Shown: positions 7,103-37,412, counted from the stretch's first letter. The stretch is 40,712 bases of DNA from Candidatus Peregrinibacteria bacterium (GCA_016201685.1 JACQCJ010000058.1:1-40712), one strand, 5' to 3'. The notes: generated from the sequence alone by a model not told the origin. Numbers and translations: made by a program.

Positions 7103-8380
7103 TCAGAACGGCGACTCATACACCGCACTCTCCCCCAATTCCTCCTCGATGCGCAGGAGCCGGTTGTATTTGCACAGGCGGTCGGTGCGCGAAAGGGAGC
7201 CGGTCTTGATCTGTCCCGTCTGGAGCCCCACCGCCAAGTCGGCGATGAAGGTGTCTTCGGTCTCGCCGCTGCGGTGACTCACGACCGCTTTCCATCCAGA
7301 CTTTTGGGTTGTCTGAATGGCATCCACGGTTTCGCTCACCGTACCGATCTGGTTGAGTTTGATGAGGACGGCATTGGCGGCCTTCTTCGCGATGCCCTGC
7401 TCGATCCGCGCGACGTTCGTGACGAAGAGATCATCGCCCACAAGCTGGAGCCGGGAACCGAGTTTCCGTTGCATCAACGCGAAGCCTTCCCAGTCATCTT
7501 CGCTGTGGCTGTCTTCGACGGACACGATAGGATAGCGCTTCGCGAGTGCGTGGTAATTCTCGACGAGCGCGGCGGCATCCATTCCTTTTCCATCGACGGT
7601 GTAGAGGCCGTTTGCGCAGAATTCCGTGGCGGCGGCATCGAGCGCGATCGTCACCTTCCCTTCGTACCCGGCCAGCGCGATCGCTTCGACGAGGATGCTG
7701 CACGCGTGATCGGCGTCCGCCACGTGCGGGGCGAACCCTCCCTCATCGCCCACCGCGATCACGTACTGGAAGTTCGTGAGGATGTCCTTGAGGGCGTAGA
7801 ACACTTCGGCCCCGGCTCGAAGCGCTTCATGGAACGACGAGAGACCCGTCGGAACGATCATGAATTCCTGGAAGCTCAACCCCGAATCGGCATGCACGCC
7901 GCCGTTGAGGACGTTCATCAGCGGCACGGGCAGCGAGACAGAATCCAAACGAGAGACACCGAACTGGTCCGCGAGCGAAGTCCACAGCGACCGGCGCTCG
8001 CTCGCCGCCCGCGCGCGGCACACGGCCATCGAGACGCCGAGGATCGCATTGGCACCGAGGCTCGCTTTATTCGCCGTCCCATCGAGGTCGACGAGCAGGC
8101 GATCGATTGCGCGGTGATCGGCGCTGTCTCTCCCCGTGAGTGCCTTCGTGATCGGCCCCTCGACGTTCGCAACGGCCTTCAGCACGGACTTCCCCCGGAA
8201 CTTCTTCGGATCGCCGTCGCGCAGTTCGAGCGCTTCGTGGCTCCCCGTCGAAGCCCCCGATGGAACCGCCGCCCGCCCGAAGCTTCCATCGCTGAGCAGA
8301 CAATCCACCTCCACCGTCGGCGTGCCGCGGGAATCGAGGATTTGACGTGCATGGATGATGGAAATGCAAACCATACTCAT
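7103..8380 (-). CDS. eno: Enolase (phosphopyruvate hydratase)
   Basis: MSMVCISIIHARQILDSRGTPTVEVD...SGASTGSHEALELRDGD...SHRSGETEDTFIADLAV..GQIKTGSLSRTDRLCKYNRLLRIEEEL. 425 aa from the ATG at 8378-8380. The tracked 815-aa ORF merely runs on upstream with no stop. Confidence 0.95.
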   Translation of the reverse strand: MSMVCISIIHARQILDSRGTPTVEVDCLLSDGSFGRAAVPSGASTGSHEALELRDGDPKKFRGKSVLKAVANVEGPITKALTGRDSADHRAIDRLLVDLDGTANKASLGANAILGVSMAVCRARAASERRSLWTSLADQFGVSRLDSVSLPVPLMNVLNGGVHADSGLSFQEFMIVPTGLSSFHEALRAGAEVFYALKDILTNFQYVIAVGDEGGFAPHVADADHACSILVEAIALAGYEGKVTIALDAAATEFCANGLYTVDGKGMDAAALVENYHALAKRYPIVSVEDSHSEDDWEGFALMQRKLGSRLQLVGDDLFVTNVARIEQGIAKKAANAVLIKLNQIGTVSETVDAIQTTQKSGWKAVVSHRSGETEDTFIADLAVGLQTGQIKTGSLSRTDRLCKYNRLLRIEEELGESAVYESPF

Positions 8381-8401: not shown

Positions 8402-8429
8402 GTCATCCTGAGCGGAGTCGAAGGGTGAC
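8402..8429. repeat. REP-like hairpin unit GTCATCCTGAGC-N4-GTCGAAGGGTGAC
   Basis: GTCATCCTGAGCGGAGTCGAAGGGTGACG lies just upstream of eno. The same CCTGAGC..TCGAAGG core recurs at 20903-20925, 22095-22113, 32714-32737 and, in the opposite orientation, at 35143-35168 and 36251-36278. Confidence 0.7.
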
Positions 8430-20846: not shown

Positions 20847-20932
20847 AATTGCGAAGGGCGAAGGGCGAGTTGCGAATGACGAATTGTGAGAGCGGCCATG
20901 TCATCCTGAGCCTGTCGAAGGGTGGCCGCCGA
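20847..20932. repeat. Composite MITE-like element: GCGAA-rich arm plus 43-nt hairpin core (copy A)
   Basis: GAATTGCGAAGGGCGAAGGGCGAGTTGCGAATGACGAATTG followed by TGAGAGCGGCCATGTCATCCTGAGCCTGTCGAAGGGTGGCCGC (20888-20930). The reverse complement of the core matches 35137-35179 at 41/43. Confidence 0.85.
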
Positions 20933-22038: not shown

Positions 22039-22133
22039 ATGGCGAGTTGCAAATTGCGAGTTGCGAATTTCTTCCATCATTCGCAATTTGCCTGCCCTGA
22101 GCCGAGTCGAAGGGCCCTTCGCCCTTCGCAATT
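22039..22133. repeat. Composite GCGAA-arm / CCTGAGC..TCGAAGG element (copy B)
   Basis: GGCGAGTTGCAAATTGCGAGTTGCGAATTTCTTCCATCATTCGCAATTTGCCTGCCCTGAGCCGAGTCGAAGGGCCCTTCGCCCTTCGCAATTCC. Same building blocks as 20847-20932 and 35136-35234. Confidence 0.75.
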
Positions 22134-22145
22134 CCTAAGCTCCAT

Positions 22146-27675: not shown

Positions 27676-28034
27676 ATGGAAAAGGCAAGAAAAGGTATGG
27701 TTGGCATCTATCAGATTTGGCGAATGGCACTCATATCAACAGAGCATTGCAGGAATCTTGGAAGAAGCATGGTCCGGTCTCTTTTCAATTTTCGATTCTG
27801 GAGATCATCGGTGATACAGATGCTCTTCCGGAACGTGAGATCCATTGGCTTGAAAAGACAGGAGCACTCACTCTTGGCTTCAATACGAAAACCGATCAAT
27901 ACAAGGATCGAACATTGATCAGTGTTCATAGAATGACAAAGAATCAGAAAACTCATGGAATTTTTCAAAGCGGGAGGCGGGAAAGGAAGTTCATAAAAAA
28001 TACCACGGACGAAGCGAGAAACGGGTCACCCTGA
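27676..28034 (+). pseudogene. Decayed GIY-YIG (homing-endonuclease-type) nuclease gene
   Basis: The GIY motif is in one frame (MEKARKGMVGIYQIW, from 27676). The later part of the domain is in another frame (27717-: ANGTHINRALQESWKKHGPVSFQFSILEIIGDTDALPEREIHWLEKTGALTLGFN). The YIG..R segment between them is absent. Confidence 0.5.
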
Positions 28035-28075
28035 GCCCGCCAGCCCTAGCCGTTCGGACGGGTCGAACGGGTGAC
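28024..28075. repeat. REP-like inverted-repeat element GGGTCACCCTGAGC...GTCGAACGGGTGAC
   Basis: GGGTCACCCTGAGCCCGCCAGCCCTAGCCGTTCGGACGGGTCGAACGGGTGAC, with terminal inverted repeat GGGTCACCC / GGGTGAC. It sits between two relic copies of the xer 3' end. Confidence 0.65.
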
Positions 28076-32708: not shown

Positions 32709-32777
32709 ACATGCCCTGAGCAGAGTCGAAGGGTGATTTGGTGCTTGGTGCTTGGTTTTTTTTCTGCGACTCTCCCG

Positions 32778-35123: not shown

Positions 35124-35135
35124 TTCCTACAGGGT

Positions 35136-35234
35136 CGCGGCCACCCTTCGACAAGCTCAGGGTGACATGGCCGCTCTCAGGTTCTTACAATTTTGAATTC
35201 TGATTCGCAATTCGCCACTTGCAATTCGCAATTC
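35136..35234. repeat. Composite MITE-like element (copy C, inverted relative to copy A)
   Basis: GCGGCCACCCTTCGACAAGCTCAGGGTGACATGGCCGCTCTCA (35137-35179) followed by ...GATTCGCAATTCGCCACTTGCAATTCGCAATTC. The core matches the reverse complement of 20888-20930 at 41/43. Confidence 0.85.
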
Positions 35235-35246
35235 ATCCCTCAATCA

Positions 35247-36569
35247 ATGTCTCTCTTCTCTCCCATCCACCACACGTTCGCCCCTCTTGCAGACGCACGG
35301 CTGCGCCGCTGCGCCCGCGCACTCTCGTACCTGCCATGGCGCTACAAGCGCGGACCGTACAGTGAAAAACTCCGAAGGGCGCTCGAGGAGAAATTCGGGG
35401 GAAGAGCCTTCCTCTTCTCCACCGGCCGCGAGGCGCTCTTCGCGTTTCTTCAATCGATTCCCTCAAAACCCGGCGACGAAGTGATCATCCAGAGTTACAC
35501 CTGCGTTGTCGTCCCAAATGCCATTCATGCCGCCGGACTCAAGACGGTCTACTGCGACATCGAACGCGACACGCTGAGTCTGGATTGCGAAGAGATCGAA
35601 GTGCTCATCACGCCGAAGACGTGTGCGATCATTTGCCAACACACCTTCGGCATTCCCGCGGACACCAAGCGCCTGCGGGAAATCTGTGACCGTCACGGGA
35701 TTCTGCTCATCGAAGACTGCGCGCACGTGATCCCGGATGAAACCGGACCACGCGACATCGGAACAGAGGGCGATGCGCTCCTTCTCAGTTTCGGCCGAGA
35801 CAAAGCCATCTCCGGCATCACCGGCGGGGCCATCATCAGCCGCGTTGCCTCGGCGAATCCCACGCTCGAGCGGATGGCCAAGCACGCGCACGATCTCTCC
35901 TTCTTCACGATTCTGCGGCTGCTCGAATACCCGAACATCTACGGCTGGGCGAAGCTCTTCTACGGCCTTGGGATGGGCAAATTCTCGCTCTTCCTGCACT
36001 CAAAGATCGGAGCGCTTCGACCCATTCTAACAAGCGACGAAAAACATGGCCGCATGCGCACGGTCCTCCACCGCATCCCCGACGTCTGCGCCGCCCTCGC
36101 CCTCGAACAACTGGAGCGTCTACGGGAACTGAATGATCATCGGAGGATGTTGACGAAGTTTTTCCTTGAGGAAGGAAAAAAGAGAAGATGGCCGATGCTA
36201 CATTGCTTCTGTCCTGGTGAGCGCGTCGAACCATGGACAGAAGCAAAATTGTCGACCCTTCGACGGGCTCAGGGTGACAATTTGATAGTTGTTCAGGAAT
36301 CTCCCCTCCAAAAATTCCCCCTCTTCGTCCGCGGCGCCGAAAAAATCCGCCGCGCGCTCAAGAAAAAAAATATTCATCTCCACGACGGCTGGACGGGCTG
36401 TGTCGTGTGCCCCGCCTCCGTGCACCTCCCCGATACCGGCTATGAAATGGGCAACGATCTGGCGGCCGAAGCCGTCTGCGAAGAAATCCTCAGCTTGCCG
36501 ACGCATCCGACGATGAGTCTGAAGCAGGCAAAAGAGCTTGTGGAAGCCCTGGATCATCTGCTTCAATGA
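35247..36569 (+). CDS. DegT/DnrJ/EryC1/StrS-family PLP-dependent sugar aminotransferase, carrying an in-frame repeat-derived insertion
   Basis: STGREALFAFLQSI...GDEVIIQSYTCVVVPNAI..AGLKTVYCDI......IICQHTFGIPAD...I.....GILLIEDCAH.....LLLSFGRDKAISG (Schiff-base Lys). Residues around ..EAKLSTLRRAQGDNL.. are encoded by the REP core at 36251-36278. Confidence 0.85.
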   Translation: MSLFSPIHHTFAPLADARLRRCARALSYLPWRYKRGPYSEKLRRALEEKFGGRAFLFSTGREALFAFLQSIPSKPGDEVIIQSYTCVVVPNAIHAAGLKTVYCDIERDTLSLDCEEIEVLITPKTCAIICQHTFGIPADTKRLREICDRHGILLIEDCAHVIPDETGPRDIGTEGDALLLSFGRDKAISGITGGAIISRVASANPTLERMAKHAHDLSFFTILRLLEYPNIYGWAKLFYGLGMGKFSLFLHSKIGALRPILTSDEKHGRMRTVLHRIPDVCAALALEQLERLRELNDHRRMLTKFFLEEGKKRRWPMLHCFCPGERVEPWTEAKLSTLRRAQGDNLIVVQESPLQKFPLFVRGAEKIRRALKKKNIHLHDGWTGCVVCPASVHLPDTGYEMGNDLAAEAVCEEILSLPTHPTMSLKQAKELVEALDHLLQ

Positions 36570-36575
36570 CGCGCT

Positions 36576-37166
36576 ATGGCTGCGCCGTTCTTCACGCTCA
36601 AAGGGAAGACGCTCGTCCTCATCGATTGGGCCAATATTTTCCATGCACAGCGTAAGAACGGATGGGCGGTCGATACTCGAAAGCTCCTTGCTCTCTTCAA
36701 AGAGCATCCGGAAATCCATGACATCGTCCTTTTCCATGGAACCGATCAGCACGAAAAATCGCAGTCCTTCCTCCGGGAACAAGCGGCCATCGGCTATCGC
36801 ATCGTGACGAAGGCCGTGAAGAAAGTGCCGGTGACGGTGGACCATGAGGGCAATCCGCTCCCAGAGGCAATCCTGCGGCGCAAGTGCGACTTCGATGTCG
36901 AAATCGCCAAGGAAATTCTCCTGAATCTCGACCGGTATCAGGGTTTCATTCTCATGAGTGGTGATGGAGATTACGCCCCCATTCTCGACGTGCTTCGCGA
37001 GCGCCGGACGCAAACAATCCTCGTGTTCCCGAAGGGCGGCTTGGGACGAGAATACACGGAAAACCCGCTCAGGAAGCATGCGATTTTTCTCTGCTCGCTT
37101 GAACGTCTGCGTCCCTTCATTGAGTTCAAAAATATCCCGGCGGGACCGAAATCCCGTCGGGCGTGA
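36576..37166 (+). CDS. NYN-domain (LabA/DUF88-like, PIN-fold) putative nuclease
   Basis: LVLIDWANIFHAQ...VLFHGTD....SFLREQAAIGYRIVTKAVKK......RKCDFDVEIAKEILLNLDRYQGFILMSGDGDYAPILDVLRERRTQTILVF. ATG lies 6 nt after the DegT stop. Confidence 0.8.
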   Translation: MAAPFFTLKGKTLVLIDWANIFHAQRKNGWAVDTRKLLALFKEHPEIHDIVLFHGTDQHEKSQSFLREQAAIGYRIVTKAVKKVPVTVDHEGNPLPEAILRRKCDFDVEIAKEILLNLDRYQGFILMSGDGDYAPILDVLRERRTQTILVFPKGGLGREYTENPLRKHAIFLCSLERLRPFIEFKNIPAGPKSRRA

Positions 37167-37223
37167 TTGATTTCAGTATAGCCGCGGATAGGAGCGAGTC
37201 AAATCTTTTTGAGAGCCCGCTGC

Positions 37224-37412
37224 GGCTGGACGGGCTGTGTCGTCTGCCCTGCCTCGGTGCATCTCCCCGATACCAGCTACGAACTGGGCAACGATCCGGC
37301 TGCCGAAGCCCTCTGCGAAGAAATCCTCAGCTTGCCGACGCATCCGACGATGACGACGAAACAAGCGAAGGAATTGGTGGACGCTTTGGATCTTGTCCTT
37401 CAGAAAAAATGA
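37224..37412 (+). pseudogene. Orphan, diverged duplicate of the DegT aminotransferase 3' end (last ~60 codons)
   Basis: GWTGCVVCPASVHLPDTSYELGNDPAAEALCEEILSLPTHPTMTTKQAKELVDALDLVLQKK* compared with the DegT C-terminus GWTGCVVCPASVHLPDTGYEMGNDLAAEAVCEEILSLPTHPTMSLKQAKELVEALDHLLQ* (36387-36569). No upstream DegT body. Confidence 0.8.

Follow-up and report, generated by a model that had tools for sequence, protein, structure and literature searches.

Palindromic repeats that lie in frame within protein-coding genes are an already known kind of insertion. According to the account of Ogata et al. (2000, 2002) given in PMC3733652, the Rickettsia palindromic elements (RPEs) are in-frame palindromic repeats in protein genes. 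In several species, GTAG- or CGTC-tagged REPs are also found within genes, and intragenic dimers of these repeats encode 20-30 residues (Di Nocera et al. 2013, PMC3733652). In reduced genomes, such in-frame repeats make proteins longer and more diverse; they are also a source of error in annotation and alignment, and they point to loops in which an insertion is tolerated. The event described in the present study, an in-frame copy in a DegT-like aminotransferase gene, would not surprise a specialist; the case nevertheless adds several things to what is known. First, two sister genomes provide a clean pair of filled and empty sites. Second, it shows one protein loop that has been colonised independently by different repeat families. 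Third, it ties the copies found in Peribacteria to a hairpin family that is spread over many phyla.

The window, i.e. the whole stretch of DNA that was analysed (40,712 nt), belongs to a MAG of a groundwater bacterium that the source names of the nearest homologues assign to the Peribacteria/Peregrinibacteria (G000; 1.13 Mb, 106 contigs, 56% GC). The plus strand carries at 35247-36569 a gene for a DegT/DnrJ/EryC1/StrS-type PLP-dependent sugar aminotransferase of 440 aa; a TTG further upstream, at 35193, could serve as the start instead. The protein matches PF01041 (DegT_DnrJ_EryC1) with E = 3.2e-43, its AlphaFold2 model (alignment input of 19 homologues) has a mean pLDDT of 82.5 and a pTM of 0.86, and a Foldseek search with this model returned KabA, GDP-perosamine synthase and ArnB with a probability of 1.00 and TM values up to 0.83. 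The invariant residues of the 19-homologue alignment are intact, including K186 in an SFGRDKAISG motif, which we take to be the PLP lysine. Judged by the Pfam match, the predicted fold-type I aminotransferase fold and the kept lysine, the gene is a member of the DegT/DnrJ/EryC1/StrS family. We conclude that a copy of a REP doublet (REPIN/BIME-like) has very probably entered the C-terminal domain at a loop that tolerates insertions and is read through in frame in an enzyme that has stayed under purifying selection. A duplicated DegT C-terminal fragment was also observed at 37209-37412, with 81% identity to residues 378-440, downstream of a NYN-domain gene (36576-37166).

The insert occupies 36204-36284 on the plus strand, as limited by the DNA repeat boundaries, and its 81 nt amount to 27 codons (residues 320-346; CFCPGERVEPWTEAKLSTLRRAQGDNL). 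Two abutting hairpins make up this doublet. Hairpin A (36203-36246, plus strand), written out as CTTCTGTCCTGGT-GAGCGCGTCGA-ACCATGGACAGAAG, has a stem of ~15 bp with one bulge and the loop GAGCGCGTCGA at 36219-36229, and is formed in both the RNA and the DNA folds. Hairpin B (36247-36282, plus strand) has ~12 bp with one bulge, the stem AATTGTCGACCCT/AGGGTGACAATT and the loop TCGACGGGCTC at 36260-36270; it contains a G·T pair, in place of which the opposite strand would have a C·A mismatch. Because loop A is nearly the reverse complement of loop B, with one mismatch, A and B represent an inverted pair, and they differ chiefly in the stem triplets (TGG/CCA vs CCC/GGG). The doublet region is predicted to fold at -38.7 kcal/mol as RNA (z = -3.4), and the z-score as DNA is -4.8.

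The sequence-only reading had described a 28-nt REP-like unit at 36251-36278 (GTCGACCCTTCGACGGGCTCAGGGTGAC). This unit is contained in hairpin B, the second half of the doublet, and the claim that it is the whole element has to be replaced: the inserted element is the 81-nt doublet of two hairpins. The unit itself is real and far above chance, as its core CCCTTCGAC-N3-CTCAGGGTGAC matches exactly at 36256-36278 (plus strand) and was found 0 times in 100 dinucleotide shuffles of the window; genome-wide, there are 6 exact copies and 10 copies at no more than one mismatch. A further copy had been placed between genes at 35143-35168, where the core is indeed exact at 35144-35166 (plus strand). Among the sites that had been given as the same unit in opposite orientation, the one near 20903 stands (20900-20922, minus strand, one mismatch), whereas those near 8402, 22095 and 32714 are relatives only, with opposite orientation, a 12-nt loop and other stem sequences. 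In the 440-aa frame the 28-mer region is read as ..EAKLSTLRRAQGDNL.. and is stop-free, so the statement that the unit leaves the frame unbroken is upheld. Four of the six reading frames of the doublet are open.

Comparison with homologues likewise agrees with the earlier view that the segment has no counterpart in DegT-family proteins. The gap from W315-P to P353-LQKF spans 10 residues in 98 of the 120 closest homologues vs 37 in the present protein, and in the 19-homologue alignment extra residues at this position occur only in the G000 protein and in its same-genus relative. In the AlphaFold2 model, the pLDDT is below 50 over residues 320-348, between a helix (292-313) and a strand (356-360); the model has three other stretches of this kind, all of them far shorter (3-6 residues each). 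The 27 added residues are probably disordered, and from the alignment and the model taken together, the 27-residue segment is an insertion rather than native DegT sequence. A rival explanation, in which the 27 residues are native to this lineage's protein by descent, or result from faulty assembly, and resemble the repeat by chance, is extremely improbable. It could draw on the fact that the exact protein is present in one contig only, but the DNA matches to dispersed copies reach E = 2.5e-12, both flanks of the insert are contiguous DegT sequence in frame, the insert is missing from homologues, and if contigs had been wrongly joined at a repeat, one and the same gene would not be back in frame on either side of the junction.

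By these sequence criteria, the gene appears to have kept its function. The ORF has neither stops nor frameshifts, and a comparison with the orthologue in the same-genus genome G001 (80% identity), with the insert left out, yielded a dN/dS of 0.16 at a dS of 0.66. This ratio suggests that both insert-bearing genes evolved under purifying selection, although it is an average over the G000 and G001 lineages, and a very recent inactivating insertion could escape notice. We therefore considered whether the insertion inactivated the enzyme, the gene being a young in-frame pseudogene. The event postdates the split from G001, and the averaged dN/dS is thus blind to a recent relaxation; the closest copy of the repeat family is 79% identical. 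Against this explanation, which we regard as very unlikely, the frame is unbroken and no invariant residue has been lost (K186 of the SFGRDK motif included), G001 tolerates at this loop an insert that is longer still while its protein is otherwise conserved, and the synteny of the Mur ligase and DegT genes is kept in one relative. Moreover, the DegT copy reads CCA TGG at a position where its nearest relatives, on contigs C30 and C25, have CCATAG and the common form is CCATGA; either of these would give a stop in the DegT frame, and the DegT copy has a Trp codon there.

The repeat reading was further supported by a census of genome G000. A strict search (loop TCGAC-N2-4-G[CT]TC or its complement, a closing T..A pair and at least 6 paired positions) revealed 37 hairpins with one strand folded vs 0-4 in ten Markov-shuffled genomes, and 48 hairpins in 1.13 Mb with both strands. 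Hairpins of the A type with the exact CATGG..CCATG stem number 12, and when the sequences around the genomic copies are compared, another conserved hairpin appears ~40 nt upstream of the 28-mer unit. A+B doublets are present at ~10 loci, and full doublets were recovered by nhmmer with a 96-nt query on C30, C92, C25, C38, C40, C31 and C62 (E = 2.5e-12 to 2.5e-4; the three strongest at 2.5e-12, 1.4e-10 and 1.6e-8). The DegT copy is 79% identical, ungapped, to G000:C30:5513-5596, and the two have in common the copy-specific outer stem CTTCTGTC/GACAGAAG. About 17 of the 48 hairpins are inside coding sequences and ~31 outside, often just 3' of genes or between convergent genes, as assigned by a crude gene caller with manual checks; since the coding density is at least 77%, this represents a strong depletion from genes (binomial p ~1e-9).

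Several copies outside genes are found in the window. The B-type copy that separates the DegT gene from the Mur-ligase gene (35135-35176, minus strand) sits within the loop of another REP type (GAGCGGCCA...TGGCCGCGA), which also flanks the RAYT-like genes of this genome. The copy with one mismatch to the unit (20900-20926, minus strand) lies between genes, inside a GAGCGGCC..GGCCGC frame and downstream of a gene that we presume to be MraY/WecA-like from reading its translation. The member GTCATCCT-GAGCGGAGTCGA-AGGGTGAC (8402-8429, minus strand) is located upstream of a probable enolase start, and two further intergenic members are present on the minus strand at 22087-22118 (CCCTTCGACTCGGCTCAGGG) and 32710-32737 (CCCTTCGACTCTGCTCAGGG, both given as minus-strand sequence). 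In the C25 doublet copy, an insert was found within the loop. At 27985-28065 of the window, the loop of a B-type hairpin (GTCACCC-TGAGCC...GTCGAA-CGGGTGAC) encloses another palindrome, which is GC-rich. Short tandem motifs of the GCGAATT/GCGAAGG type (ttcgcaattcgccacttgcaattcgcaattc) flank several hairpins (35205-35235, 20850-20880 and 22050-22140), and a peptide related to these motifs, HVATRNSP, occurs in an extra segment of the TrmD of this genome.

In-frame copies were also observed in other genes of G000. They include PckA (C61), with ~48 extra residues vs the T. thermophilus PckA (1j3b); a MutY-like glycosylase (C92), with ~53 extra residues and containing HVMVSASNHDMRRIVALRRAQGDNS; the HisF of the HisA-HisF family (C78), with 8 additional residues vs the Pfam profile; a PurP-like protein (C72), with 19 additional residues vs the Pfam profile; a Pfam-confirmed GT2 gene (C91); and two membrane proteins (C30 and C84), which are long ORFs with a good coding score and without a Pfam match. 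The frame in which the doublet is read differs by gene, with VMVSSSNH in the C30 protein vs GERVEPW in DegT. Two other hairpin matches were dropped as insertions: the segment in TrmD resembles the native SILxRAQ motif of TrmD sequences, and the match in KsgA lies in a gene whose Pfam match has no net length gain. On C40 (299-1846), a CysRS-like ORF has ~130 N-terminal residues that are unlike CysRS, which suggests a disruption of the frame or a wrong start; a hairpin doublet is present at its 5' end.

The doublet family can be compared with the described systems. With the RPEs it shares a dispersed palindrome that lies in frame in genes and adds tens of residues at tolerated positions while the hosts remain intact, as is found in DegT, PckA, the MutY-like gene, HisF, GT2 and the two membrane proteins. 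The RPE-like colonisation that had been proposed is supported by the homologues, the model and the census, in which both coding and intergenic copies appear; the likeness is one of process. In contrast to the RPEs, the doublet is hosted by an unrelated lineage (CPR/Peribacteria), its hairpin is also found in many phyla, and its units are shorter, with two hairpins of ~36-44 nt, whereas RPE-1 exceeds 100 nt. The likeness to REP, BIME and REPIN sequences lies in short (20-40 nt), imperfect and dispersed palindromes in many copies, mostly extragenic and often at gene ends, and in the pairing of the units as inverted doublets. The length of the encoded segment is also similar, with 20-30 aa for intragenic REP dimers (PMC3733652) vs 27 aa for the doublet in DegT. 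However, the doublet is without the GTAG/CGTC tag at the stem end, since its stems begin with TGTC(A/G) and CGTC is only incidental in some loops; the doublet family conserves the loop TCGAC-N2-4-GCTC, while its stems vary and covary; and the RAYT-like genes of G000 are flanked by another REP type. Because it has no GTAG/CGTC tag and flanks no RAYT gene, we file the family as REP-like doublets of their own. Like MITEs, the doublet is small, non-autonomous and able to reside in genes, but no parent insertion sequence was found for it, terminal inverted repeats distinct from its stems were not seen, and the empty C30 site in G001 shows no clear target-site duplication.

This empty site is part of the differences between the sister genomes. 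In the gene for the C30 membrane protein, which holds the closest relative of the DegT copy, the doublet is filled in G000 and empty in G001, where 87 nt (29 codons) are missing between flanks of 82-86% identity; instead of a clear target-site duplication, a possible 5-nt AAGAG repeat is present on one side. In the DegT loop of G001 a different palindromic repeat of ~117 nt is found vs the 81-nt doublet of G000, and the two inserts show no homology at the DNA level in the alignment. The G001 repeat belongs to a second palindromic family (GGATGGTTYGATGGTGAGATGGTTGCAAAGCAAG ... CTTGCGAACCATC...) of ~100-117 nt, in frame in the loop at L020:1502-1617 (G001:C3:22963-23079). Near-full copies of it occur at 3 more places in G001 (77-79% identity), and in G000 nhmmer gives ~20 matches to this family, e.g. 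at C67:5241, C85:13238 and C82:38540. In a more distant DegT homologue (P0015), the same loop is occupied by a B-like hairpin in degenerate form, CCCTTCGGCTCCGCTCAGGA, with AACCAGAAACC repeats on either side. The MutY-like gene has the doublet in G000 and a different GC-rich hairpin in G001, and genomes G005 and G017 are also without the MutY doublet. The PckA of G000 carries a CATGGT/ACCATG hairpin plus a further unit, and that of G001 a single hairpin with the compensatory stem CATGCT/AGCATG. From these presence and absence differences between G000 and G001, the turnover of the doublet is recent. The different palindromes at the same sites in DegT, MutY and PckA, together with the nested hairpins, suggest that hairpins already present may be preferred as landing sites.

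The same data bear on the explanation that the insert has been co-opted, such that the mRNA hairpins regulate the gene (through pausing, stability or attenuation) or the loop gives the enzyme a new property. The stability of both hairpins as RNA (-38.7 kcal/mol, z = -3.4), the compensatory stem changes across copies, including those between the PckA hairpins of G000 and G001 (CATGGT/ACCATG vs CATGCT/AGCATG), and the presence of three different repeats in the same DegT loop across lineages are consistent with such a role. However, the loop sequence of the G001 DegT is unrelated, the insert peptide has a pLDDT below 50, the frames differ among genes (VMVSSSNH vs GERVEPW), so that no peptide is conserved, and most copies are outside genes. 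Co-option is considered very unlikely here.

The distribution of the hairpins extends beyond the sister genomes. Among 40 relatives scanned, the exact A hairpin is present in 10 of the 24 same-family genomes, with 0-46 copies each, the B type in 19 of these 24, and both types are rare outside the family; a reversed control pattern gave 0 matches in all 40 relatives. In a scan of one genome per species, the exact A hairpin was found in at least 120 contigs, for a cross-species pattern of 21 specified bases with an estimated chance expectation of ~0.5. The contigs listed include Nitrospirota, Alphaproteobacteria, Chloroflexota, Bacteroidota, Acidobacteriota, Elusimicrobia, Omnitrophota and Desulfobacterota-type lineages, and among the matches listed are cultured strains, e.g. 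of Devosia, Mucilaginibacter and Aminobacter. Most of the cross-phylum copies listed have an inverted B- or A-type partner within 10-60 nt, A+B doublets are also present in other genera and other phyla, and CGACTTCGCT is contained in the B-type loops of relatives. Covariation was evaluated at the next stem positions beyond the fixed CATGG/CCATG core in 113 cross-phylum copies. Outer stem pair 2 is paired in 76% of the copies vs a partner-shuffled mean of 47%, and pair 3 in 60% vs 45%; none of 2000 shuffles reached the observed pairing at these pairs, and several Watson-Crick pair types occur at both. This covariation suggests that the hairpin itself is the maintained unit. In Rfam, only two tRNAs reached the gathering score in the window and matches at the doublet were at chance level, and a literature word search with the loop sequences and the typical peptides (SLSNH, FDKLR) returned only primers and unrelated matches; within these two sources, no published description of this hairpin family was found.

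Our reading of how the doublet arrived in the DegT gene is as follows. A small non-coding palindromic repeat, composed of two adjacent hairpins with opposite loop orientation, was very probably inserted into the DegT loop, and, its length being a multiple of three and its frame stop-free, it is read through and adds ~27 residues. A trans-acting enzyme that recognises a hairpin with the conserved 11-12-nt loop may spread the element, copies in genes would survive only if they keep the frame, lack stops and do no harm to the structure, and a loop that already holds a palindrome may be a preferred landing site. In its broadest form, this proposal holds that the copies belong to a cross-phylum family of structured mini-elements, whose members have in common the conserved loop of 11-12 nt, stems that covary and a partner in inverted orientation; the family would be mobilised in trans by an unlinked enzyme and prefer existing hairpins, such that colonised loops serve as long-lived landing pads. 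We consider this possible but rather doubtful. If true, the replacement of palindromic families by each other at such landing pads would explain why the sister species differ in the repeats of DegT, MutY and PckA.

Two groups of G000 genes supply candidates for the mobilising enzyme, namely the six that encode RAYT-like Y1 transposases and those for small nucleases of the GIY-YIG type. The six RAYT-like genes are small (~145-170 aa; L014-L019, on G000:C93, C4, C34, C96, C61 and C89), and two motifs recur in their products, DHCHFLL (HUH-like) and RYIHxNPV. Every one of these genes lies between inverted GAGCGG..CCGCGG hairpins, a REP type of 21-22 nt that is different from the doublet and has ~20 clear short copies dispersed in the genome (e.g. 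GAGCGGGCATACTTGCCCGCGG); none of the six is flanked by A or B hairpins. A tblastn search with two RAYT-like proteins against 80 cross-phylum loci gave no match within 8 kb. An all-against-all blastp of the ORFs beside 120 cross-phylum copies revealed no recurrent gene next to the hairpins; only generic families (e.g. ABC ATPases and LysR) recur at these loci, none of them near the hairpins. Hairpins of the A/B family lie within ~100 nt of 2 of the 5 small GIY-YIG genes, which are small numbers. Hairpin pairs in the related-genus genome G014, which has 46 exact A-type copies, were considered as the flanks of an autonomous element and rejected: one pair forms an in-frame part of a ProC-like gene, the second surrounds a histidine-phosphatase-like gene, and there is no transposase in either case. 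This ProC-like gene (L157:771-1691; G014:C50) holds two in-frame A-type hairpins (..ACHGEPRRTMAC.. and ..SAHCDNAVSNHK..).

Further observations concern these enzyme families themselves. Two small GIY-YIG genes of G000 (C54:13370-13917, and C57, minus strand, ~7194-7358) share their frame with an apparent tRNA-derived sequence (..GGMAEWSKARDSKSRNP..GSNPSP..), and an A+B hairpin doublet lies immediately upstream of the gene on C54. In the 1068-aa ORF of a leucyl-tRNA synthetase, a Y1_Tnp domain (IS200/RAYT-like, PF01797, 63 bits) is present in frame at L013:1501-1842 (G000:C37:4514-4855), between ..GIEIHYDV.. and ..ITVFTTRPDT..; here a housekeeping enzyme appears to have taken up a complete transposase-like domain.
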